This document shows, one piece after another, positions 1-18,993 of a DNA stretch of 31,483 nucleotides. The notes beneath the pieces were generated by a model. The model was not told where the DNA came from, ran no database searches, and saw nothing but the letters and a program-made list of their open reading frames with translations. A program made the translations under genes and the position numbers. Each line of letters begins with the position of its first letter. Position 1 is the stretch's first letter. This DNA comes from Gammaproteobacteria bacterium (GTDB taxonomy: Bacteria > Pseudomonadota > Gammaproteobacteria > Chromatiales > Chromatiaceae): contig JAHDCB010000001.1 of NCBI GenBank assembly GCA_020630035.1, positions 1 to 31,483 of the forward strand. The letters are read 5' to 3'.

Positions 1-1754
1 TACAGACCGGATTGATCGCGTCCCATCCGGTGGGCCCAAACAGGTCTTTGGATTCTGCTCAGCGTATAGTCTGCAGAAGCAGTGTGTAATATCCAATTCT
101 CAGTCTTCTCGGCATTACCGAGGCGTAGAGTCTGAGGTGATATTGTGGGCGCAATCGGCTGTATGGGTAAGGTTGTATCGACACCGGTCAGATACAGATT
201 ACCGTCATGCTGTAGCTGTAGAATCGGATTACCGGGCTGCGGATCAGACTGTAGCCTGATGCCGTCAGTATCTTCCACCAACCAGCAGTCGTGCGGTTGA
301 TATGTCTGGTTGTGTACCAGCGGCCAGTAATCAGTGGATAGCCCTGGTGGCCAGCGTTCCGGGTGTGTGCGTAATTCGTCGCTGTGGGCGGTTAAATATG
401 CTTGTGCGTAGGCAGGTCTGGTTTGGGTTCTGAGTAACAGATGTTGCCGGTGTCCGGTCTGTGTTAGCCAGTTTTTGGTCTCTGTTGGTGCACTACCTTG
501 TTGCTGATGGGTGCATAGCTGGTGAAAAAAATGGTCACAGGCTTGGATGACTGTTGTTGGTAAGGGTACGCCGAGTTGGTGTAGTCGGTGGACTTCTTCG
601 TGACGTGGTTCAGTCAACCAGTAGGTGTGGTGTGTCAGGATAGCTTTGCCGATCTGGTGTTTGATGGTATTCGGCAGTTCAGCAAAACGTTCCTGATAAT
701 AAATTGCTTGGTCAGTGCGCAGGCAATAACCATCATAAGTGGCGCACACAGCGGCGTGTTGCCACACGTTAACTTCAGCAGCGGCAGATATATCAGGAAA
801 CAACTGACGGATGGTGCGCAGTAGGGCAGGTTCGACAAACAAGGCAGCACTGGTGATGGCGAGTAACTGTTCTGTTTGCGTGCTGATCTGCGTGGCAGAG
901 ACGGTGCTGGTAGGAGGTACTTCGGGTTGAATCGGATACAGACCCGGTGCAGGCCCGGCTATCTTCAGGCTATACACAGGAATCTGTTGTGCCTGCCAGA
1001 TACGGCTGAGAGTTGCCCAGTGAGTGGTATGCAGCTCATCCAGCACCAGTATCGCATCTCCTGGCTGAGGTGACTGGTGTGGCGACTTATTCTGGTGTGT
1101 GGTGTCGGAGCCACGCCGAAAGGTGGTTAACCGGATACGTTGTGCGCCCAGCTGTTGTCGCACCTGGCGCTGGATTTGTGCATAGTCAGCCTGCAACGGG
1201 GTCAGCTCGCGTCGGGTATTGCGCCAGACGTGCAGCATACGCGGCCAGCGTGGTCGAGCCTGATATGGTATTCGCCGCAGAGGTTGCCCGCGTGCAATCT
1301 GGCGTACGGCACGTCTCAGATGCAGTCGGCGGCCTGGCTGTAAACGCCGTATCTGACGCAGCAGTTGGTTGTGGATCTGCGCATCACGACATAAGGTAGG
1401 TGATGCTAATCGTTCGCCCTCCTGCCCGCGCTGTAATAACGCATCAATAGGTGCCCGGTCTTCTTTTGTTGATTCTGGGTCAGGGATGACAGGTGGATTG
1501 ATCTGTTTGTCGACGTAATGTGTGACACACACAGCAGACCAGCGTCGTATATCGGTATCAGGTGCTGTTGTGTCGTGGCTGGTCTCATCAACCAGATGAT
1601 CAAGGGCGGGTGTCGGTAAAGCGGGTGTTTCTGTTATCGGAGCTGTCTGCCGGCGGCAAAATCCCAATTGTGCAGCCAGATGATCCGGATTTGCTTCCGG
1701 CAAGGTGACATGAGCCCGAATCAGATCGCCATACCAGCGTAAATGAGATGACAT
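1..1754 (-). CDS. Large vWA-like component of a MoxR ternary system, probably fused to a C-terminal FGS/CLec domain beyond the window edge (C-terminally truncated by the window, at least 584 aa; absent from the ORF track)
   Basis: Manual translation from ATG at 1754 (22 bp after the MoxR stop) is open to the edge: MSSHLRWYGDLIRAHVTLPEANPDHLAAQLGFCRR...PGRRLHLRRAVRQIARGQPLRRIPYQARPRWPRMLHVWRNTRRELTPLQADY...PGDAILVLDEL...LLAITSAALFVEPALLRTIRQLFP...LSRIQRPVWAHRMGRDQSGL(Y). The last motif parallels the N-terminus of the DGR target (PPTWATDWGEDIYGLY). The vWA assignment is from remembered family motifs. Confidence 0.8.
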   Translation of the reverse strand, partial: MSSHLRWYGDLIRAHVTLPEANPDHLAAQLGFCRRQTAPITETPALPTPALDHLVDETSHDTTAPDTDIRRWSAVCVTHYVDKQINPPVIPDPESTKEDRAPIDALLQRGQEGERLASPTLCRDAQIHNQLLRQIRRLQPGRRLHLRRAVRQIARGQPLRRIPYQARPRWPRMLHVWRNTRRELTPLQADYAQIQRQVRQQLGAQRIRLTTFRRGSDTTHQNKSPHQSPQPGDAILVLDELHTTHWATLSRIWQAQQIPVYSLKIAGPAPGLYPIQPEVPPTSTVSATQISTQTEQLLAITSAALFVEPALLRTIRQLFPDISAAAEVNVWQHAAVCATYDGYCLRTDQAIYYQERFAELPNTIKHQIGKAILTHHTYWLTEPRHEEVHRLHQLGVPLPTTVIQACDHFFHQLCTHQQQGSAPTETKNWLTQTGHRQHLLLRTQTRPAYAQAYLTAHSDELRTHPERWPPGLSTDYWPLVHNQTYQPHDCWLVEDTDGIRLQSDPQPGNPILQLQHDGNLYLTGVDTTLPIQPIAPTISPQTLRLGNAEKTENWILHTASADYTLSRIQRPVWAHRMGRDQSGL

Positions 1755-1776
1755 AGCTCAGCCGCTCTGCGGATGG

Positions 1777-2736
1777 TTATCCATAGTGACTGCCAGTCTG
1801 GTGTTTGTCTAATACATATTGTTTGGCCTGATTAAATAATGCTCGCTGGGTCTTTGCATCCTGTGCCAGTGTGCTGAGTGCGCGTAATAAATCCAGATAT
1901 TCAGCCTGGCCCGGCAGCGGCAAGCCTTGGCTATGGGCATCGGCACGACTATGCCATAACTGGCTGGCGGCATCAGCGTACAGTGTTTCATCATGGATCG
2001 TGGTGGCAAAGTGTGCTCGACCACGCCGACTCAGCTGAGCGACAAAATCGGTTTCTTTGTCCGGCAGAGCAAGGGCCAGTACCCAGCAGCGGCGCACAAA
2101 GGCCGGCGGTAACTCGCGCTCTTCATTCGTGGTGATGATCACCAGTGGTGCAACCCCGGTCTGGCAGATGCGTTCCCGGCGATATGGCACCTGAAAACTG
2201 CCTTGTCCGAGAGTTTCCAGCAAGCCATTCGGTACGTCAGACTCCGCCTTGTCTATCTCGTCCAGTACGACCACCACGCCCGCCGGGGTGGTATCAGGGT
2301 GTGCTGGCCCGGTCGTGTTAAAGGCACAGGTCTGATGAGCCTGTGCGGCACTCGTCCAGTCAAGTGCCCACCATAATGGTCCCGGGCTCAGGTAACGAGC
2401 GGGTTGTAAGATTTGTGCCGCATCCGCAGTCGGGTTGTGTGCCAGTAATTGTGCTTCACCCAGCCGGGCGATGTCATCAAACGTATACAACAGATCGTGA
2501 CTTTCGGTGTGTGAATCGAGTGTTTTGTGGATCAGTTGCCAGCTCCAAGCCTTGGCCACGGCTGCTGCTAACTGAGTTTTACCAACACCGGGCTCACCAC
2601 GTACCAGCAAGGGACGGTTGGCGGCATAGGCGGCTCGTACGGCGAGTGCTGCCTCTGCTGTTAATTCATGCGGTAGTGGTTGTGCGTCATTGCCCAACTC
2701 AATCGTGTCGGTAGGTAATTCAGGTGGACGTGGCAT
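1777..2736 (-). CDS. MoxR-family AAA+ ATPase (ternary conflict-system type)
   Basis: Walker A GEPGVGKT, Walker B VVVVLDEIDK, LLYTFDDIARL, PGPLWWALDW and ITTNEERELPPAFVRRC. Its ATG overlaps the upstream stop (TGATG at 2734-2738). Confidence 0.9.
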   Translation of the reverse strand: MPRPPELPTDTIELGNDAQPLPHELTAEAALAVRAAYAANRPLLVRGEPGVGKTQLAAAVAKAWSWQLIHKTLDSHTESHDLLYTFDDIARLGEAQLLAHNPTADAAQILQPARYLSPGPLWWALDWTSAAQAHQTCAFNTTGPAHPDTTPAGVVVVLDEIDKAESDVPNGLLETLGQGSFQVPYRRERICQTGVAPLVIITTNEERELPPAFVRRCWVLALALPDKETDFVAQLSRRGRAHFATTIHDETLYADAASQLWHSRADAHSQGLPLPGQAEYLDLLRALSTLAQDAKTQRALFNQAKQYVLDKHQTGSHYG

Positions 2737-3926
2737 CAGTCACTCCGCTGCAGACGTTCAATTTGTTTGAGCATGCCATTCACATATTGTTGGCAGGCGC
2801 CATCTTCCATGAGTAATAAGCCGCTGATTGTACCGGTTCCCTGGTTGATCACGCTGAATATGAGCATTGCGGAAGACAGCCTTTTATCTATTTCACATAA
2901 TGCTGCAATCCAGGTTGGATCGGTAAAATAATTTTTTTCCACCTTAATGTAATAAGATAGTTTTTCTTCTGCTTTTTTGTCCTCCAGAATTTGTTGTATG
3001 GTTTGAATCGTATCTTCGATAGGCCCTATTTGTTGTGTGTTGTCTAATTCCTGATAGATTTGCAATAACAGACTTTTCATCGCCTGTTTTGTGCTATCGG
3101 TAATCCCGTAAGCGTGTGGTAGTGGGTAGACCGGTGTTTTGTTATCTTGTATATCTCTTTTTTCAACTTCAATCTCATTTTCGTATATTACGTTTTTGCT
3201 GACATCGATATGCGGGAAGGTCTTGGAAAGTCTACCATTGACAATGGGTAAAATAAAGTCATGGCCTATGTCGATCTCCAGGCCGGGTAATGTGGTATTC
3301 CCATCAGGTTTGCGTAAGCGGCTTTTTGCAGCGTCTGAATTAACAATCAATAATAATAAGGTACAAAATACATGCCACATCTGGTATCCCCAGTCGGCTT
3401 CAGGCCTTTTTCCTCGCTTAATCCAATCTTCGACGGTCTTGACGAACGCAGACTTAAACCGTAGCAGGCATGCCTGGATGTGATTTTTACTATCAGACGG
3501 CTTACGGACGATATTGTAAGCAATCTCTTTTGGCTCCGGCTTGCACCCCAGACGTTGTGAAAACTCATCCAATAACGTTTGTGTGACTTCAGCATAAGAT
3601 GGGTTTTTTATTGTGAGATAATCGACAATCCTGTTTTCAATCTCAATATAAAATTCGTTATCCAGTTTGATATCGTTTAAACCGGACAGGTCTTTGTCAT
3701 TTTTTATGGCTGCTGCAATGATTTTTTCTGGTTCGGACGTGCTGGAAACTTGTTCCTGAAGCACTTCAACTTTTACTTTAATAGTCTGTTGCTGTTTTGA
3801 ACCCCAGCTCTGGTACCATTGTTGCAGGTCTGCTTTTAACTCAGGGACAGGGTGTTGCAGTATTACCGTTTTCCGGCTGATTTCGAGAAAAGCAAGCAGT
3901 TGGTCAAAGAAGATACGCCAAGTCAT
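2736..3926 (-). CDS. Hypothetical 396-aa protein; positional third component of the MoxR-vWA module
   Basis: Long ORF with an AAGAGG RBS-like motif upstream, translationally coupled to MoxR. AT-rich: two sampled 60-mers are 28% and 33% GC versus 63% in a MoxR sample. No recognisable motif. Confidence 0.75.
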   Translation of the reverse strand: MTWRIFFDQLLAFLEISRKTVILQHPVPELKADLQQWYQSWGSKQQQTIKVKVEVLQEQVSSTSEPEKIIAAAIKNDKDLSGLNDIKLDNEFYIEIENRIVDYLTIKNPSYAEVTQTLLDEFSQRLGCKPEPKEIAYNIVRKPSDSKNHIQACLLRFKSAFVKTVEDWIKRGKRPEADWGYQMWHVFCTLLLLIVNSDAAKSRLRKPDGNTTLPGLEIDIGHDFILPIVNGRLSKTFPHIDVSKNVIYENEIEVEKRDIQDNKTPVYPLPHAYGITDSTKQAMKSLLLQIYQELDNTQQIGPIEDTIQTIQQILEDKKAEEKLSYYIKVEKNYFTDPTWIAALCEIDKRLSSAMLIFSVINQGTGTISGLLLMEDGACQQYVNGMLKQIERLQRSD

Positions 3927-4128
3927 ATCACGGCCTCTTATTCTGAAATATGATAAATACCCATTGGTATCAGGGCCACGCAGCTCATCAGCATTGTGGT
4001 TTTTTTACAGTAGTCGCCAGGCCAACAGGCTTTCAGCTTGATGCTTACTCACCGGCTGGCAGGCATTTACTTTTTGCCGACATCTTGTCGGGCAGGATAA
4101 CTGTCTGGTCAGATCAGGTTGATCTGAG

Positions 4129-4242
4129 CTGGGGCAATCCGGAAGCCCTGGTTGTTGTTCCGGTTGTCGGGCCTGTTCCTGTTGCGGTAGGCTGAACGCA
4201 ACCTCCTGGCATTGTTGATCCAGGAGCCACCGCGCACCACGC
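4129..4242 (-). ncRNA. DGR template repeat (TR)
   Basis: Begins 19 bp after the RT stop. In the target frame it reads VVRGGSWINNARRLRSAYRNRNRPDNRNNNQGFRIAP, with 8 AAC/AAT codons and 27 adenines. It aligns ungapped to 5893-6006 (offset 1764). Confidence 0.96.
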
Positions 4243-4261
4243 CCGGCGTGATTGCTGACAG

Positions 4262-5281
4262 TCACCCGATGCTATCAGACACGAAATCCGGGTATTTTTG
4301 CAAGTGGTTTTGTCGCCAGGCACGGCTGTCTGCATGTTGTGTCATGGCGTATACCGAATTTAACGCTTGTTGTAGCGCCAGGTCATCCAGTATGCCTTGC
4401 TGCCATTGTTGTTCGTAAGTGGTACGTAATGTGTGATAACGACGTTTTTTGCGGGGACTCAGGCGGATGGCACCTGGCAGAATGCGATAGCCACAATAGC
4501 TGACGCCCTGACGGCTGCGATTGATAACAGGGTTTGGTTTGATCAGCAATTGTCTGTGTTGGTGCAGATAGTCGGTGAGTTGTTTTAGTGTATCGCGTGC
4601 GGCTATTTTGTCATGGCACCACCAGATGATATCGTCCATGTAACGCACCTGGGCGCGTACAGCCGATTGCTCAATCAGATAGCGGTCGGCACCACTTAGG
4701 TAGAGATTGGCAAAATGTTGGGAGGTTAAGGAACCAATCGGTAATCCTTTGCCTGGTTGCGCCTGATAGCCGTGGATAATTCGGGTTAACAGGTACAAAA
4801 ATGGTTGGCCTTTGAAATGCCGCGCCAGCAATTTCAGTAGGCTGGCATGATCCACACTCGGAAAATAACCTGCGATATCTACCTTGACGTACCAGTCAAA
4901 CCGTTGCAGATTACGTTGTACTTGTGTGACTGCACGATGCACCCCCTTGCCAGGACGGCAGGCATAGCAACCGGGTAGCAGCAGACGCTCAAAGATAGAC
5001 TCTGTTTGGTTCAGAATAGCATGATGTAAGACCCGGTCTGCAAAACAGGGGGCATGAATCAGGCGTTTTTTCGGATCTCGAATGTAAAAGCTGCGATAGG
5101 CATTATGTGGTACCTGATCTTGCAAAATGGCAGTGCTGAGGTGCGCGAGTTGGTGATCCAGGTCAGCGAGAAAAGCAGCAACATCCGGTCTGTGTCGCTT
5201 GCTGCGTGCTGCCTTGTATGTTGCCTGTAGCAGGTTGGTGTAGCTGGCGATCTCAGTCAGTGAGATGGCGTGTCGGCGCAT
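4262..5281 (-). CDS. DGR reverse transcriptase (339 aa)
   Basis: IRDPKKRLIHAPCFADRVLHHA, YACRPGKG, VKVDIAGYFPSVDH, GLPIGSLTSQHFANLYL (DGR GxxxSQ signature) and RYMDD catalytic motif. Compact, with no maturase or endonuclease extension. Confidence 0.96.
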   Translation of the reverse strand: MRRHAISLTEIASYTNLLQATYKAARSKRHRPDVAAFLADLDHQLAHLSTAILQDQVPHNAYRSFYIRDPKKRLIHAPCFADRVLHHAILNQTESIFERLLLPGCYACRPGKGVHRAVTQVQRNLQRFDWYVKVDIAGYFPSVDHASLLKLLARHFKGQPFLYLLTRIIHGYQAQPGKGLPIGSLTSQHFANLYLSGADRYLIEQSAVRAQVRYMDDIIWWCHDKIAARDTLKQLTDYLHQHRQLLIKPNPVINRSRQGVSYCGYRILPGAIRLSPRKKRRYHTLRTTYEQQWQQGILDDLALQQALNSVYAMTQHADSRAWRQNHLQKYPDFVSDSIG

Positions 5282-5744
5282 GTTGAGTGCTTCCGGAGCT
5301 GGTTTGCTGCAAACAGTTTAAAAAGGCAACACCATATTTTTCTAAGCGGGCTGTACCGACACCCTCAATTTCGCCCAGTTGTGTCAGGTTGCGGACTCGT
5401 TGCGTGACCATAGTGGCCAGTTGTTCGTGGGTAAACAAGGCATAGGCTGGTACACCTTCCTGTTGCGCCAGGTTCTTGCGCAGACTTCTTAGTTCGGCAT
5501 AAGTTGTAAAGTCTTCCGGGCTTAACACTTCCCGGTAATCAATCCGGTCACGCCTGGATGAGCGTTGCTGTGGTGGGGTATCACTTGTGATATAGGTGAC
5601 ACAGATTGCCCAGAAGCTTTCCAGTCCTTGACTGACCAAATGTTTTTCTACGGTGACAACGCGATGCTGGTGACAGAATGTATTTAACAGTTTCTGGCCG
5701 TCATCTGGTGTTACCGCATCAACCTTGAAAAATGCAAATGGCAT
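5253..5744 (-). CDS. HRDC-domain DGR accessory protein (163 aa; start reassigned to ATG 5744)
   Basis: C-terminal HRDC pattern YAELRSLRKNLAQQEGVPAYALFTHEQLATMV...LTQLGEIEGVGTARLEKYGVAFL. The ORF-track extension to 5858 runs through non-coding hairpins. The 3' end overlaps the RT start by 29 bp. Confidence 0.85.
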   Translation of the reverse strand: MPFAFFKVDAVTPDDGQKLLNTFCHQHRVVTVEKHLVSQGLESFWAICVTYITSDTPPQQRSSRRDRIDYREVLSPEDFTTYAELRSLRKNLAQQEGVPAYALFTHEQLATMVTQRVRNLTQLGEIEGVGTARLEKYGVAFLNCLQQTSSGSTQHAPTRHLTD

Positions 5745-5775
5745 GGCAAAACCTGGCAAGACGCAAAAATTTTTT

Positions 5776-5880
5776 GAAGGCACCGCTATCACGGTGCCTT
5801 CTTGTTTGTTGTTGCTGACATGCGCGCGGCTCCGCCGCTGCTGGTCAGACAACAACAAATCTATCGCGGCTCCGCCGCTG
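5776..5880 (-). promoter_or_regulatory. Post-VR hairpin/cruciform cluster (candidate DGR target-recognition elements)
   Basis: Two copies of GCGGC-GGA-GCCGC on the minus strand (5866-5878 and 5826-5838) inside a 16-bp direct repeat (5865-5880 and 5825-5840). An imperfect inverted repeat 5805-5819/5844-5859 encloses the second copy. A perfect 10-bp inverted repeat lies at 5776-5785/5792-5801. Confidence 0.7.
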
Positions 5881-6691
5881 ACCTGACCTGACCTGGGGCA
5901 ATCCGGAAGCCCAGGCTGCCGAACCGGTCGTCGGGCCCGCCCCTGCTGCGGCAGGCCGAACGCAACCCCCCGGCAACGCCGATCCAGGAGCCACCGCGCA
6001 CCACGCGATACTCGCCCGTTGCAGGGCCTGTGGGATCCACAGACTGTGATACATCATATTCTGCGTACCAGTCGGCACACCATTCCCATACATTGCCGTG
6101 CATCTGATATAAACCCCACGGATTTGCAGGTAATGCCTTAACCGGTATAGTTTGTTCCCGGTACTCACCCTTTTGTCCATCGGTATACGGATAATTACCA
6201 TCATAATTGGCTTGATGCGTCGTGATTGTCTGACCAAATGAAAATGGTGTGGTAGTGCCGGCCCGACAGGCATATTCCCACTGTGCTTCAGTGGGTAGTC
6301 CGACAGCTAGCTCGGGTACCCGGGCATTCAGTTGTTGCAAAAAGATGTGTACATGGTCCCAACTAATTTGTTCGACCGGGTTTTGCAGGTCATGCTGAAA
6401 ATGGGCCGGGTTGTCACCGGTCACTGCCTGCCAGAGGGCTTGTGTGCACGCTGTGTCGGCCAGCCAGTAGCCTTGACTCAGGGTCACCAGATGTGGTGTT
6501 TCATCAGTATTGCGTTCGGGTTCATCTGGTGGTGATCCCATCATGAATCGGCCTGGTGGTATCCAGCGGCAGCGTTGGTGTGCTGTTCCAAGCATAAAGC
6601 CAGCATACAGGCCGTAGATATCCTCACCCCAGTCGGTTGCCCAGGTGGGTGGAAAGGGTTCTGGCCAGATAAATGTTCTGGTGTTGGTCAT
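5861..6691 (-). CDS. DGR target protein, FGE-sulfatase (FGS)/CLec-fold domain, 276 aa, no signal peptide
   Basis: WIPPGRFMMGSP, ETPHLVTL, LPTEAQWEYACRAGT, ANPWGLYQMHGNVWEWCADW and RVVRGGSW...GFRIAP. The VR encodes the last about 37 conserved-frame residues. Start reassigned to ATG 6691, 8 bp after the trkH stop; the ORF-track start at 6778 overlaps trkH. Confidence 0.93.
   Translation of the reverse strand: MTNTRTFIWPEPFPPTWATDWGEDIYGLYAGFMLGTAHQRCRWIPPGRFMMGSPPDEPERNTDETPHLVTLSQGYWLADTACTQALWQAVTGDNPAHFQHDLQNPVEQISWDHVHIFLQQLNARVPELAVGLPTEAQWEYACRAGTTTPFSFGQTITTHQANYDGNYPYTDGQKGEYREQTIPVKALPANPWGLYQMHGNVWEWCADWYAEYDVSQSVDPTGPATGEYRVVRGGSWIGVAGGLRSACRSRGGPDDRFGSLGFRIAPGQVRSAAEPR
5893..6006 (-). 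repeat. DGR variable repeat (VR)
   Basis: Matches the TR at 95 of 114 positions. All 19 differences are at TR adenines (15 A>G, 4 A>T), giving 13 amino-acid changes: VVRGGSWIGVAGGLRSACRSRGGPDDRFGSLGFRIAP. Confidence 0.96.
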
Positions 6692-10734: not shown

Positions 10735-11961
10735 TCAGGGATGCAGGATATGATGTTGTGCAATGGTCTTGATTGTATTTGACCTGATGCCAAGATCAGC
10801 AGCGAGGGTGTGCCACTGGCTGAGTGCCTGTGTGGTTTGTTCTACGATTGTTATTGCTTTGTTGGGCTTGATATCAGCGAGCCTGGCCAGGTCAAGCAGG
10901 TGTTGTTGTGTAAATCGTCGGCTTGCTCCCATCAGCAGTGTGCTTTGTTCGCCATTCGGGCCAGAGGAATAGGTGATGTCGTATGCCGGTGAAAAGGTCC
11001 AGGTGCCGGTTTTATCCAGGATGAATGAAAAGTTTTTGGCATGATCATCCCGGTTATGCGACAACACGTTGAAGACGGCTAACTGGTACAGCTTTTCGAC
11101 TTCTTTTACAGATCGAGTCAGGACAAAACAGGCCTTGATCAGATCCTGATAGTCCAGACAGGGCGTTCTGAAGTCTGCGTGTAATAAACCACAGGCACTG
11201 AGAATGTGGCGGCGCTGGTTATGCTGCCGGTCAAATCGCCGGGTGGCAAAATAACGTTGCTGTAACAGCCGTACCTCTGGTACATCAACACCGGCCAGTT
11301 GTGCCATCCTGGCATAGGCGTATTCAATCAGACCGGCTTGCGGGTCATCATACAGGTGGCTGAATTTAACGATCCAGTGTTGAAAGCCGGTCGGCAGATC
11401 ACCTACCCCGGGTATGACCTGACTGGCTTGTTCGTTCAGGCCAATCAGCACCTTTGGCCGCGCACCAGCGGATGACCCGTTCAGTCGGAATAACTGTTCG
11501 GAAAACTCAGTGCCTCCCTGGATCAGGGCTGCTTGTTCCGCCAGACTGGACAGATCCAGCAGGGTATCCTGGTGTGTTGTATCGCTATAGTCAGGCAGGT
11601 AGGTTAAGGCGCCTATTGCTTGCTGACCGACTGCACATAACCGATCTAATGGCGAACAGCGAGCTGGGTCAATCTGACGCGATCTGAGCTTCCGGTCCAG
11701 CAATAAGCGCCCCCAGCCGTCCGGCAGGCTGTCATTAAACACACCGAACAGACCTTCAAACAAGTGCGGTTCTGCACGTATCAAGCCGGTTCTCAGGGGC
11801 AGTCTGAAGGGCGAAATCTGCAAACTGGAATGGATAAATTCCCGGTCATATTCAAAAAAAATCACCCGATCTTTGATTGCCAGTCTGCCCACCGATAGGG
11901 TGGTATCCTGATCAAAGTGTAATGTCACCTTGACTTGTGTGGCGGGTAGAAAACTGGTCAT
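10735..11961 (-). CDS. hipA: HipA-family kinase toxin (type II TA)
   Basis: N-terminal coupling region (FEYD...SLPDGWG), Gly loop GSSAGARPK, RRFDR, catalytic NRDDHAKNFS and SPAYD. Confidence 0.92.
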   Translation of the reverse strand: MTSFLPATQVKVTLHFDQDTTLSVGRLAIKDRVIFFEYDREFIHSSLQISPFRLPLRTGLIRAEPHLFEGLFGVFNDSLPDGWGRLLLDRKLRSRQIDPARCSPLDRLCAVGQQAIGALTYLPDYSDTTHQDTLLDLSSLAEQAALIQGGTEFSEQLFRLNGSSAGARPKVLIGLNEQASQVIPGVGDLPTGFQHWIVKFSHLYDDPQAGLIEYAYARMAQLAGVDVPEVRLLQQRYFATRRFDRQHNQRRHILSACGLLHADFRTPCLDYQDLIKACFVLTRSVKEVEKLYQLAVFNVLSHNRDDHAKNFSFILDKTGTWTFSPAYDITYSSGPNGEQSTLLMGASRRFTQQHLLDLARLADIKPNKAITIVEQTTQALSQWHTLAADLGIRSNTIKTIAQHHILHP

Positions 11962-12236
11962 GGCAAGGTTTTTAACAAATCATCCATGGACGTGTAGGGT
12001 GTCGCTTGAGCATAAAACAGCGTCATCAGGTCGTCCGCCAGTTCCAGTACAAACAAAAGCTTGATGAAAGAGGCCAGAGAGATCTGGCCGGTTTGTTCGT
12101 ATTTCCGTAAGGTGGACAGAGAAACGCCGGATAACTCAGCCAGCCGGACCTGGCTAAGCTGCATTTGTTTTCTGCGTTTTCTGACGGCCTGACATAACTC
12201 AGCCAATAATTCGCGCGGTGTTCTAAGTGATACCAT
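11958..12236 (-). CDS. XRE/HTH antitoxin (HipB-like)
   Basis: 92 aa with RRKQMQLSQVRLAELSGVSLSTLRKYEQTG helix-turn-helix; overlaps the hipA start by 4 bp. Confidence 0.88.
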   Translation of the reverse strand: MVSLRTPRELLAELCQAVRKRRKQMQLSQVRLAELSGVSLSTLRKYEQTGQISLASFIKLLFVLELADDLMTLFYAQATPYTSMDDLLKTLP

Positions 12237-15702: not shown

Positions 15703-18700
15703 TTACAGCATCATGCAACCGACATCTGTCCCGGTGCTGGCTAACAAATAGCCATGCTGTGTATTCAGCAGAGCTGCAGGTGGCATCCACCTGGTCTGTG
15801 GTGCAACCGGCCTGGTGGGGTCAAGGCGCGATGCTGGTTGTGATTGTTGTAGCGTGGTATACAGTGGCAACGAAGACAACACATCATCCATCGCAGTCGG
15901 GTGGGCATCATAGCCGGCCATGATCAGACGGCTGATCTTACCCCGGCGCAGGTGACAGGGAACCTGCCTCCATTGGGTGACCTGCAGAGGTGCAACTTGA
16001 GTTGTGGTTTGCAAACTGCCCGCGTCTACATCCACTGCTTGCACCGCAATCTCACCGGAAGTTGATAGTGTCGATGAAGCCTCAATCACTGATGGCCCGG
16101 ATCGCAGCAGATAGTCAGCTACCAGGGTGATATTACCACCGGCACCACCATGTGCATTTGCCTGTATCTGGCTGTTTTCCAGAATCACGAACACCGGGTC
16201 AATCTGAATATCGCCCCCCTTACCATCTCCGCCTTTGACACTGGTGGCGATCCGACTGTCTTGCAAATGTAACAGATCGCGCGTTTCAACCTGGATACCA
16301 CCACCACCGGCATTTTCAGATTCAGTCGTCAGTGCGCTGTTGCCCTGCATCTGAATCTTCTCACCGGTCAGAATCACCAGATGGCCCGCAGTACCAGCGT
16401 CTTCTGCGCCAGAGGTGCTGCCTGAGGTGATTTGTGCGCCGCCCGTCATAAATAACATAGCCGGTTGGCTTTGCTCACCGATCCGGATATCTCCTGCAGC
16501 ACCGGTACCAGCCGTCGATGTCGTGATCTGACTGTTGCCACTCATGTGTAGGGTGCCGCTCAGATCAATCCTGATTTGACCTGCAGCACCAGTTTTTGAG
16601 GCATTTGTAGACGGCTCTGGGGAATTAAGCCCGCTGGTTGATTCGATTCTGGTACCCTCTGCTAACGTCAGGTTATCTGCCTGGATCTGCACTGAGCCGG
16701 CGGTACCCGGGCCATGCGAAGAACTGCTGATCCAGGTTTGCTCGCCACTGAGCCGAATCTGATCATCCGCTGTCAGCCGGACAGAGCCACCTTGGCCGCT
16801 GCCCTCGGTTGCAGCAGTGATCGCTGCTGCATCTGCTAAGGTGATTGTCGGCGCTGTAATCACCAGATCACCACTGTCGCCCGCGTTCGTAGCCACACTG
16901 TCTGCGCCGATAGTGATGCCGCTCTTGTTCAGTATTACCTGCTCGGTGGCCTGCAGTCGAACAGAACCACCCTGGCCGCTGCCCTCGGTTGCAGCGATGA
17001 TCACTGCTTCATCCGCTAAGGTGATCGTCGGTGCCGTAATCACCAGATCACCACTATTGCCCGCATTCGTAGCCACACTTTCTGTGCCGGTAGCGATCAA
17101 GCTCTTGTTCAGCATTACCTGCTTGGTAGCCTGCAGTTGAACAGAGCCACCCTGGCCGCTGCCCTTGGTTATAGCGCTGATCGCTGTCTCATCCGCTAAG
17201 GTGATCGTCGGCGCTGCAATCTCCAGATTACCCCCCTTACCGGCATTTGTGGCCACACTGTCTGTGCCGATAGTGATGCCGCTCTTGTTCAGTATTACTT
17301 GATCGGTGGCTTGCAGTCGAACAGAACCACCCTGGCCGCTGCCCTCGGTTGCAGCGATGATCACTGCCCCATCCGCTAAGGTGATCGTCGGTGCTGTAAT
17401 CACCAGATCACCACTGTTGCCCGCATTCGTAGCCACACTTTCTGTGCCGGTAGCGATCAAGCTCTTGTGCAGCATTACCTGCTCGGTAGCCTGCAGTCGA
17501 ACAGAGCCACCCTGGCCGCTGCCCTCGGTTGCAGCGATGATCGCTGTCTCATCCGCTAAGGTGATCGTCGGCGCTGTAATCACCAGATCACCACTGTTGC
17601 CCGCATTCGTAGCCACACTTTCTGTGCCGATAGTGATGCCGCTATTGTTCAGCATCATCACCTGCTCGGTGGCATTCAGTCGGATAGAGCCACCCTGGCC
17701 GCCACCCTCGGTTGCAGCGGTGATCACTGTCCTATCCGCTAAGGTGATCGTCGGCGCTGCAATCTCCAGATCACCACTGTTGCCCGCATTCGTAGCCACA
17801 CTTTCTGTGTCGGTAGTGATGAAGCTCTTGTTCAGCATTACCTGATCGGTGGCCTGCAGCCGAACAGAGCCACCCTGGCCTCTGCCTTTGGTTGCAGCGA
17901 TGATCGCTGTCTCATCCGCTAAGGTGATCGTCGGTGCTGCAATTACTAGATTGCCACTATTGCCGGCATTCATGGCCTCACTGAGTGTTCCCAAATTGAT
18001 TCTGCTTGCGTTGTTCAGCACCACCTGCTCGGTGGCATTCAGTCGGATAGAGCTGCCCTGGCCAGTACTATTCACAATCGTTGTGATTTGTGAATAAGAA
18101 AATTCAATTGTTTCAGCCTGCAATGCTACGCCATCATGCACTGTTGCATCCATGCCACTGTTGTTATCTGCCCGCAGGAAGCTGTCAGACGCAGTGATCC
18201 TAGCACCTTGTGCTCGTATTCTGCCAAGCGTGGTACTGTTGGCCTGGTTGCTGACGTTGGCCTGGCTATTCTCAAAGATGATATCTGCCGGTGTTGTAGT
18301 GTTATGGATCCGATCCGGTGTGAGTTGCACTTCACCGGCTGAGTCCACCGTAATCAGGTCGACACGTCCACCAGCGGCCTCAAGTTTTGCCTCTGAGGTG
18401 ATTTCGATTTCGCCACCGACCAGGTTGACCGCCTGACCATCAGCGACACGCAACTGGCTGCCATTGATCTGGATTTGGCCAACGCTCGCATCCAGAAAGC
18501 CAAACGCTTCCGGTGCGGCAACAGTCAGGGTCATGTCCTTGTTGGTATCGGCATACAACCGTTGTCCATCTGCCAAGGTGACATAATCAGCTGTGCTCGC
18601 ATGAAAGGCACCGTTCACATCCAGACTGGCGTTTTCGCCCATGACGATGCCGTTCGGATTGACCAGGTACAGGTTCGCGTTGCTGGTGGTGCTTTTGATG

Positions 18701-18993
18701 TTGCCGTCGATCCAGCTCTCGTTCGAGCCGGTCACCCGGCTGATGATGTTTTGGGTATTCGCTGCGGCCTGGAAGTCAGCCGTCTGGCCAGTCTCAACAT
18801 TGAATTCGCGAAAGCTGTGCAACAGGTTGCCGCCTTGGGTGGTGCCACCGGTGATCTCAATGATTTGGTCTTGTAATGTGAGTGTCGTGCCAGCAGTATT
18901 GTCGGCGATCAGCCCGTCGCCCGATGCGGCGGACAGAACATTACTCAGCAGCAGGTTGCTGAGTAGTATCGGAATAGTAGTTTTTGTCAGCAT
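15703..18993 (-). CDS. Filamentous-haemagglutinin N-terminal (TPS) domain exoprotein with beta-helical repeats, 1096 aa
   Basis: Signal-peptide-like N-terminus; NLLHSFREFNV, NIISRVTG and NLYLVNPNGI TPS motifs; Gly/Ser/Thr-rich repeats. Confidence 0.9.
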   Translation of the reverse strand: MLTKTTIPILLSNLLLSNVLSAASGDGLIADNTAGTTLTLQDQIIEITGGTTQGGNLLHSFREFNVETGQTADFQAAANTQNIISRVTGSNESWIDGNIKSTTSNANLYLVNPNGIVMGENASLDVNGAFHASTADYVTLADGQRLYADTNKDMTLTVAAPEAFGFLDASVGQIQINGSQLRVADGQAVNLVGGEIEITSEAKLEAAGGRVDLITVDSAGEVQLTPDRIHNTTTPADIIFENSQANVSNQANSTTLGRIRAQGARITASDSFLRADNNSGMDATVHDGVALQAETIEFSYSQITTIVNSTGQGSSIRLNATEQVVLNNASRINLGTLSEAMNAGNSGNLVIAAPTITLADETAIIAATKGRGQGGSVRLQATDQVMLNKSFITTDTESVATNAGNSGDLEIAAPTITLADRTVITAATEGGGQGGSIRLNATEQVMMLNNSGITIGTESVATNAGNSGDLVITAPTITLADETAIIAATEGSGQGGSVRLQATEQVMLHKSLIATGTESVATNAGNSGDLVITAPTITLADGAVIIAATEGSGQGGSVRLQATDQVILNKSGITIGTDSVATNAGKGGNLEIAAPTITLADETAISAITKGSGQGGSVQLQATKQVMLNKSLIATGTESVATNAGNSGDLVITAPTITLADEAVIIAATEGSGQGGSVRLQATEQVILNKSGITIGADSVATNAGDSGDLVITAPTITLADAAAITAATEGSGQGGSVRLTADDQIRLSGEQTWISSSSHGPGTAGSVQIQADNLTLAEGTRIESTSGLNSPEPSTNASKTGAAGQIRIDLSGTLHMSGNSQITTSTAGTGAAGDIRIGEQSQPAMLFMTGGAQITSGSTSGAEDAGTAGHLVILTGEKIQMQGNSALTTESENAGGGGIQVETRDLLHLQDSRIATSVKGGDGKGGDIQIDPVFVILENSQIQANAHGGAGGNITLVADYLLRSGPSVIEASSTLSTSGEIAVQAVDVDAGSLQTTTQVAPLQVTQWRQVPCHLRRGKISRLIMAGYDAHPTAMDDVLSSLPLYTTLQQSQPASRLDPTRPVAPQTRWMPPAALLNTQHGYLLASTGTDVGCMML
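16789..18063 (-). repeat. Intragenic tandem array: seven 60/61-codon units
   Basis: GQG motifs start at 18055, 17872, 17692, 17509, 17329, 17149, 16969 and 16789 (spacings 183, 180, 183, 180, 180, 180, 180 bp). Consensus is about SGQGGSVRLQATEQVxLNKSxIxxGTESVATNAGNSGDLVITAPTITLADxxxIxAATEG. Confidence 0.93.

Follow-up and report, generated by a model that had tools for sequence, protein, structure and literature searches.

The DNA analysed here, called the window, is an entire contig of 31.5 kb (31,483 nucleotides; JAHDCB010000001.1) from a gammaproteobacterial metagenome-assembled genome (MAG; GCA_020630035.1). The MAG has a size of 1.6 Mb and is 94% complete, and its sample was recorded as an algae metagenome. 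We examined a gene cassette at the low-coordinate end of the window that combines a diversity-generating retroelement (DGR) with the gene of a MoxR-like ATPase. All cassette genes lay on the minus strand after trkA and trkH, and they followed in the order of a short FGS/CLec target gene, an HRDC gene, a reverse transcriptase (RT) gene, the template repeat (TR), an open reading frame (ORF) of 396 aa, the gene of an AAA+ ATPase and a long ORF (Table 1). In a preliminary description of this DNA, it was noted that the TR was followed on the same strand by a 396-aa orphan, a translationally coupled MoxR ATPase and a large ORF 22 bp further on, and the coordinates confirmed this layout. The stop codon of the 396-aa ORF and the start codon of the ATPase gene overlapped in TGATG, which indicated translational coupling, and the long ORF began 22 nt past the ATPase stop. 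The results described below suggested that the cassette is probably a complete DGR joined to a MoxR-like three-gene conflict-type module, in the architecture known as clade 5A / DGR 8.

Table 1. Positions of the cassette features in the window and the evidence for each. VR, variable repeat.
Feature	Position	Strand	Evidence
Short FGS/CLec-only DGR target, 277 aa	5861..6691	-	Pfam FGE-sulfatase 7e-42; VR in last 50 codons
Variable repeat (VR)	5884..6006	-	123-nt direct repeat of TR, 83% identity
HRDC-domain DGR accessory protein; start codon uncertain	5253..5858	-	Pfam HRDC 5.5e-15
DGR reverse transcriptase, 339 aa	4262..5281	-	RVT_1 5.8e-14; PADLOC RT 2e-39; YMDD and SQ motifs
Template repeat (TR)	4120..4242	-	Repeat of VR; translates as C-terminal end of FGS domain
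Third component (396-aa ORF)	2736..3926	-	Residues ~90-393 are the probable conserved C-terminal module
MoxR-like AAA+ ATPase, 319 aa	1777..2736	-	AAA_5 1e-11; Walker A, Walker B and sensor residues
Long sensor protein, N-terminal extension, at least 584 aa	3..1754 (read 1754-3)	-	Family ending in FGS; ORF truncated by contig end
Alpha/beta Rossmann-like domain of long protein, residues ~130-280	915..1367	-	AF2 domain model and hhalign
All-helical middle domain of long protein, residues ~287-480	315..896	-	AF2 model, pLDDT mostly >85
Beta-rich region of long protein, residues ~488-570, then first FGS lead-in residues	3..293	-	AF2 model; family consensus

The DGR and its CLec proteins

The DGR in the window was complete: it comprised an adenine-specific TR/VR pair, a DGR-type RT and a VR at the C-terminus of a CLec/FGS target. 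All mismatches between the TR and the VR lay at TR adenines, except for one C/G difference near the 3' end. The RT was 53% identical to the RT of a Contendobacter locus (L019) and 41% identical to that of locus L023, both of which matched the window in architecture, and HRDC homologues adjoined the RT in both. From these features, the RT, the HRDC gene and the TR were predicted to be able to rewrite the VR of the short CLec protein. In the Contendobacter locus, one TR matched two VRs, located at the end of the long protein and in the short protein, and all TR/VR differences were at TR adenines, apart from the same C/G difference at the 3' boundary. In the window, this non-adenine difference (C in the TR at ~4127, G in the VR at ~5891) stood just before the homology stopped, and in the Contendobacter locus it recurred in both VRs (~12376). 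The recurrence suggests that this distinction between TR and VR at their 3' boundary is conserved.

The start of the short target at position 6691 matched the gene call in a relative, and its N-terminus was not hydrophobic. A Kyte-Doolittle scan with a 19-residue window, which was the sole method used for this purpose, revealed no signal-peptide-like or transmembrane stretch in any of the six cassette proteins (maximum 1.6). The lectin-fold domains are thus probably cytoplasmic, as had been proposed for the hypervariable lectin-like domain in the preliminary description.

The large ORF had been recorded in that description at its correct distance from the ATPase gene, but its apparent identity as a second FGS/CLec protein had been missed. 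No Pfam domain was found in its 584 residues. In an exhaustive search, we obtained 347 related representative clusters, typically of 850-1000 aa, and an FGE-sulfatase domain was present at the end in 43 of the 49 family members sampled. According to the family consensus, the FGS domain starts exactly at the point where the window ORF is cut, at a WA..GRD.YGL lead-in. The sole close homologue (82% identity) was located on a syntenic JGI contig (L013), where the ORF ran on into the first half of the FGS domain. Because the family ends in FGS and the ORF of the relative enters FGS, the long ORF would represent the N-terminal extension of a second CLec protein. We searched the MAG for the rest of this protein, and neither a further FGS domain nor a further TR-like repeat was found. 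The ORF was probably truncated as the assembly broke at the repeated FGS/VR sequence, and, by analogy with the relatives, the missing C-terminus would be a second VR-bearing CLec domain. A Logan contig of 351 nt with low depth from the source sample matched the TR (window 4124-4242) with 17 differences; those listed were T to A on the plus strand, corresponding to A to T on the coding strand. This contig may represent the second VR that the assembly lacks, or a VR copy altered by diversification.

The AF2 model of the long ORF (pLDDT 77.8, pTM 0.72) displayed three domains, and in the family the order was alpha/beta, helical and beta, followed by a C-terminal FGS/CLec domain.

The MoxR-like three-gene module

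Among PDB profiles, the ATPase matched the AAA domains of Midasin best (1.5e-17), and its Walker A, Walker B and sensor residues were invariant in the family. Its identity was 29% to the MoxR protein encoded next to a Pfam-positive iSTAND gene and 31% to its counterpart next to a VMAP-C gene. Based on the AAA_5 match, the Midasin match and these identities, the ATPase was assigned to the MoxR / helix-2-insert clade. No similarity was detected between the ATPase and the canonical MoxR-vWA pair of the same genome (contig C21). NCBIfam and PADLOC scans of the three ORFs yielded nothing specific. The NCBIfam model MadB_ATPase (64 bits versus a cut-off of 475) was rejected as non-specific, given that it matched 12 of 14 control genomes below the cut-off, and a literature search on MadB_ATPase found no paper.

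To survey the neighbourhood of the ATPase, one genome per species was scanned with a profile of ATPase homologues, and the flanks were searched with the proteins of the window itself. The roughly 4000 homologues had a length of roughly 320 aa, and most of them carried the name MoxR-like ATPase or AAA family ATPase. Two or three FGS domains were found within ~5 kb downstream of the ATPase in all 13 of the best-scoring AAA+ loci, versus only 1 of roughly 67 more distant loci. These 13 loci belonged to Nitrosomonas, Accumulibacter, Planctomycetaceae, Holophagae, Contendobacter, Thiothrix, Polyangiaceae, Isosphaeraceae, a Lamellibrachia endosymbiont, Verrucomicrobia, Lysobacterales, Ectothiorhodospiraceae and Algibacillus, and they spanned several phyla; RT and HRDC homologues were present in two of them. 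The usual order in the relatives was the third component, the ATPase, a long FGS protein of ~900 aa, HRDC, RT, TR and the short FGS protein. The gene set of the window was the same set, circularly permuted. Since FGS domains lay downstream in 13 of the 13 best loci versus 1 of about 67 distant loci, the adjacency of DGR and ATPase is more than chance, and the ATPase is placed by these data in a subclade that always lies beside FGS genes.

The preliminary description had tied the DGR to a MoxR-like three-gene conflict-type module and had also considered that the ATPase might group with metabolic MoxR clades, or that homologous loci might never carry FGS or DGR genes. The survey bore out the tie. 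The orthologues were located beside FGS genes and effector-bearing third components, and, judged by this context, the ATPase appears to stand apart from the metabolic MoxR genes. The window resembles the pairs NorQ-NorD, CbbQ-CbbO, RavA-ViaA and CoxD-CoxE in that an AAA_5-type ATPase adjoins a protein with a Rossmann-like domain; unlike those pairs, it has no metabolic client genes nearby, and the neighbours of the ATPase orthologues are FGS and effector genes. A paralogous AAA+ ATPase (40% identity) with the same family-specific motifs was found on a 2-kb contig of the same MAG (contig C40; L110:122-1114, minus strand), behind a 305-aa ORF. It probably belongs to a second system of the same class that was fragmented by assembly.

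The 396-aa ORF matched nothing in Pfam, NCBIfam or PADLOC, and its only homologue (72% identity) lay on the same syntenic JGI contig as that of the long ORF. Its GC content was 0.42, compared with ~0.53 in the neighbouring genes. In the relatives, the gene in the same slot encoded 460-770 aa, with an N-terminal Trypsin_2, TIR, SEFIR, TCAD9 or PNP_UDP_1 domain followed by a shared module of ~300 aa. Residues 90-393 of the 396-aa ORF were collinear with this module (hhalign 83.6%, E 8e-6, with ten sequences); the same alignment with nineteen sequences gave only 34.5% and E 4e-4. The first ~90 residues had no match and no paralogue in the genome, and on the latter ground an EAD-type adaptor was rejected for the first 95 residues. 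Described earlier as an orphan, the ORF is better read, from its alignment to the module of the relatives, as a likely third component without an effector head.

Two known identities were considered for the module, and both were rejected. Neither the 396-aa ORF nor the third components of 15 relatives matched the VMAP-C family PF20028, and hhalign to three VMAP-C domains remained below 0.1%. In the case of iSTAND, the ESM features gave a value of 0.80, yet no PF19995 match was obtained at E values up to 1, and when two Pfam-positive iSTAND proteins were aligned to the module with hhalign, they scored 2% and 0.2%. The module shared by the TIR, trypsin, SEFIR and PNP fusions appears to be so far unnamed.

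The alpha/beta domain of the long protein was the candidate for the vWA component. The vWA models of Pfam and NCBIfam did not match the long ORF or any of 49 family members. Modelled separately with AF2, the domain reached a pLDDT of 84.5. In a Foldseek search against the PDB, nothing fell below E 0.01 with either the whole model or the isolated domain; the best E value was 0.014, and NorD, the vWA partner of NorQ, recurred weakly at E 0.08-0.1 (0.084). In profile comparison with hhalign, the domain was clearly homologous (99.9%, E 4e-32) to proteins of ~340 aa encoded after the ATPase gene at loci of Streptomyces, Sorangium, Anaerolineales and Methylibium, and one of these proteins had a sub-threshold VWA_CoxE match. 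It also aligned to the vWA components of canonical VMAP loci (90.9%, E 1e-6). This canonical set consisted of the 28 N-terminal domains of the large protein after the MoxR gene in Streptomycetaceae, which were homologues of two proteins beside Pfam-positive VMAP-C genes in one genome. Against an alignment of five CoxE vWA sequences, hhalign gave 27% in register, but the canonical ternary set itself reached only E 0.095 there, so that this control has little to say either way. The ESM features agreed with the vWA link.

The vWA component of the ternary systems has been described as a six-stranded Rossmann-like domain in which core strands 1 and 4 each end in a conserved MIDAS aspartate (Kaur et al. 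2020, PMC7159879). The family alignment contained MIDAS-type columns: strand 174-179 ended in D (often as D-R-S) in 90% or more of the sequences and strand 234-238 in S-D, and these columns were the positions given by Kaur et al. for the MIDAS aspartates. In the copy in the window, N179 and D239-E240 were found instead, so that both aspartates were replaced. On the basis of profile comparison, and not of a recognised fold match, we regard the alpha/beta domain as a probable, diverged relative of the vWA component in ternary systems. The term vWA-like in the preliminary description was thus supported only in part, by the profile link to the VMAP-locus vWA components, while the Pfam, NCBIfam and Foldseek searches and the loss of the MIDAS aspartates did not support it. 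Profile searches of the three ORFs, which had been proposed in that description, supported the MoxR-like nature of the ATPase, and the third component matched neither VMAP-C nor iSTAND.

In five distant loci (L028, L029, L035, L036 and L037), the vWA-like domain was encoded as a separate ORF of ~340 aa, according to our own ORF calls in high-GC DNA, and the third components were TIR- or trypsin-headed. Next came genes of long proteins with TIR-CHAT, TIR-NB-ARC-TPR or PNP-SLOG domains in L028, L029 and L036, and type VI secretion sheath genes in L037.

Comparison with known systems and competing explanations

MoxR-vWA ternary systems were defined by Kaur et al. 2020 (PMC7159879), whose description includes fusions of the vWA component to FGS domains and a link of these domains to DGRs. 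In the layout reported by Doré et al. 2024 (PMC10907252, section 13), the gene directly downstream of a MoxR-like ATPase encodes a target with no recognisable domain in its long N-terminal extension, and a short CLec-only target is present as well. In these systems, TIR, peptidase or adaptor genes are often adjacent, and occurrence in multicellular or aggregate-forming hosts is an enrichment and not a strict criterion (PMC10907252). By its gene layout, the locus in the window corresponds to the 'clade 5A / DGR 8' architecture of Doré et al. 2024. The preliminary description had supposed that the gene set might be undescribed; the exact layout is present in that publication (PMC10907252, section 13), and the locus is a further example and not a new kind.

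Like DGR 8 of Thiohalocapsa PB-PSB1 (PMC10907252), the locus has a MoxR-like ATPase directly upstream of a CLec target with a long extension (22 nt here) and a second, short CLec-only target, and the targets are predicted to be cytoplasmic. Relatives of the window locus often have adjacent TIR or trypsin-like effector genes, as clade 5A systems do. The window differs from DGR 8 in its circularly permuted order, in its host, a 1.6-Mb genome from an algae metagenome, and in its third slot, which is occupied by an effector-less 396-aa protein and not by an HTH, TIR or peptidase gene. With the VMAP and iSTAND ternary systems (PMC7159879), the locus and its relatives share a MoxR-clade ATPase (29-31% identical), a third protein that bears a variable effector head in the relatives, a candidate vWA-type protein with a C-terminal FGS domain, the DGR link and an alpha/beta domain that aligns to the canonical vWA component. 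In contrast to those systems, the module in the window is neither VMAP-C nor iSTAND, Pfam does not recognise a vWA domain, and the copy in the window lacks the metal-site aspartates and any recognised effector or EAD domain. This locus is set apart by its permuted order, by a third component that lacks an effector, by a vWA-like domain that lacks the aspartates and by an intact RT where a relative has lost it.

The mechanism of such systems has been the subject of proposals (PMC7159879, PMC10907252), and the immune role is a published prediction. Following these proposals, two cytoplasmic hypervariable CLec domains would bind a ligand derived from an invader. The ATPase hexamer would then engage the vWA-like domain of the long sensor and remodel the third component, and in the relatives the TIR, SEFIR, trypsin, PNP-type or kinase-like heads would stop the infected cell. 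At the window locus, the ~90 N-terminal residues without an effector could point to a different output, such as an adaptor function or neutralisation by binding, or to a partly reduced system. The preliminary description had stated that no experimental mechanism was known, and our literature search likewise found no experimental study of a system of this class.

To evaluate the evolutionary state of the cassette, we compared the window with related genomes. A contig of GCA_020630515.1 carried trkA-trkH followed by unrelated genes, with the cassette absent, and three congeneric genomes (98-100% complete) contained neither the ATPase nor the RT. The cassette is one accessory island inserted after trkH. 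The JGI relative L013 retained the short target, the homologue of the 396-aa ORF, the ATPase and the long protein, and it was without a block of ~1.77 kb that comprises HRDC, RT and TR (L013:7269-7607 versus window 4026-5798), so that the short target was joined directly to the 396-aa ORF homologue. Its long protein had 717 aa and retained only the N-terminal half of the FGS domain. The breakpoints were located ~62 nt after the target stop and ~95 nt past the TR. VR/TR recombination was therefore rejected as the cause of the RT loss, which would be a block deletion or insertion and not a simple VR/TR crossover. Between the window and L013, the dN/dS values of all four cassette genes were 0.10-0.34 at a dS of ~0.5-0.6 (trkA and trkH, 0.03), and the 396-aa ORF was the least constrained of the four (0.34). 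These values indicated that the four genes are real and under purifying selection.

Several of these results weigh against the reading of the cassette as a complete DGR joined to a conflict-type module. The vWA assignment failed with domain models and Foldseek, and other residues stand in place of both MIDAS aspartates. The third component lacks an effector head and matches neither known type, and its homology to the module of the relatives is moderate and dependent on the profile (E 8e-6 versus 4e-4). The C-terminus of the long ORF lies outside the assembly, so the second VR is inferred, and the literature search yielded no experimental precedent. Because the nearest relative has lost HRDC, RT and TR along with half of the FGS domain of its long protein and three congeners are without the cassette, the system is dispensable, and it may be decaying. 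An explanation based on these points is that the locus is a decaying remnant of a full DGR-MoxR sensor in a reduced 1.6-Mb genome, in which function may be left only in the DGR and the short target. It accounts for the effector domain that the relatives have and the window lacks, for N179 and E240 in place of the aspartates of the family, for the losses in the closest relative and for the absence of the cassette from the three congeners and GCA_020630515.1. However, all ORFs are intact, dN/dS is well below 1, the catalytic motifs of the ATPase and the motifs of the RT are preserved, and the VR-TR differences at TR adenines are the footprint of DGR mutagenesis. We therefore consider decay of this kind unlikely.

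A sensor with no role in defence, in which the CLec proteins and the ATPase would serve signalling, protein quality control or association with a host such as an alga, was judged improbable. The same slot in the relatives carries TIR, SEFIR, trypsin-like and PNP heads, which are typical effectors of conflict systems, the island has a patchy distribution in close relatives of the kind seen with defence islands, and a HipA toxin module is located nearby. On the other side, the literature search brought no experimental proof of a defence role for the class, no PADLOC defence model matched the long protein, the 396-aa ORF or the short target, the DNA came from an algae metagenome and genomes in this genus are reduced, and the window locus has no suicide effector. 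That a DGR with a single short target and an independent three-gene ATPase operon are neighbours by chance is very improbable. This explanation could draw on L013, in which the short target and the three genes persist in the absence of an RT, and on the many relatives without an RT within 10 kb; the co-occurrence of FGS genes with all 13 best-scoring AAA+ loci contradicts it, as do the long ORF that itself leads into an FGS domain, the single TR that serves both CLec genes in the Contendobacter locus, and the short target that stays attached to the three genes in L013. The reading as a complete DGR with a three-gene conflict-type module was thus retained. As a tentative extension of it, the locus might belong to a further MoxR ternary subsystem with its own ~300-aa module and a strongly diverged vWA-derived sensor, which here, in a version without a suicide effector or MIDAS aspartates, would neutralise or regulate and not kill the cell.

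Of the bacterial systems so far proposed as analogues of anticipatory antigen receptors, DGR-diversified cytoplasmic sensors coupled to MoxR-like ATPases come closest. The locus in the window is compact, has an intact RT and lies in a small genome, and it offers a natural comparison with a close relative that has lost the RT block. It also provides evidence for a relationship between the vWA component of ternary systems and the N-terminal extension, termed 'domain-less', that clade 5A targets carry. The findings can guide the choice of constructs for first experiments and leave the picture of such systems unchanged.

Neighbouring genes and genome context

A gene for a HipA-family kinase toxin (408 aa) was located at window 10735-12236, a few kb from the cassette. 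A 92-aa ORF (11958-12236) overlapped its start, and the matching 92-aa gene of the syntenic relative has an HTH_3 domain. Window 15703-18993 encoded a protein of 1096 aa with an N-terminal two-partner secretion (TPS) domain, for which no homologue of at least 90% identity was present in the protein collection. The genomes of the genus measured 1.5-1.8 Mb, compared with ~2-4.7 Mb in the other genera of the family (most 2.7-4.7 Mb); the lineage is genome-reduced. On the contig of a relative, dsrEHC was also carried.

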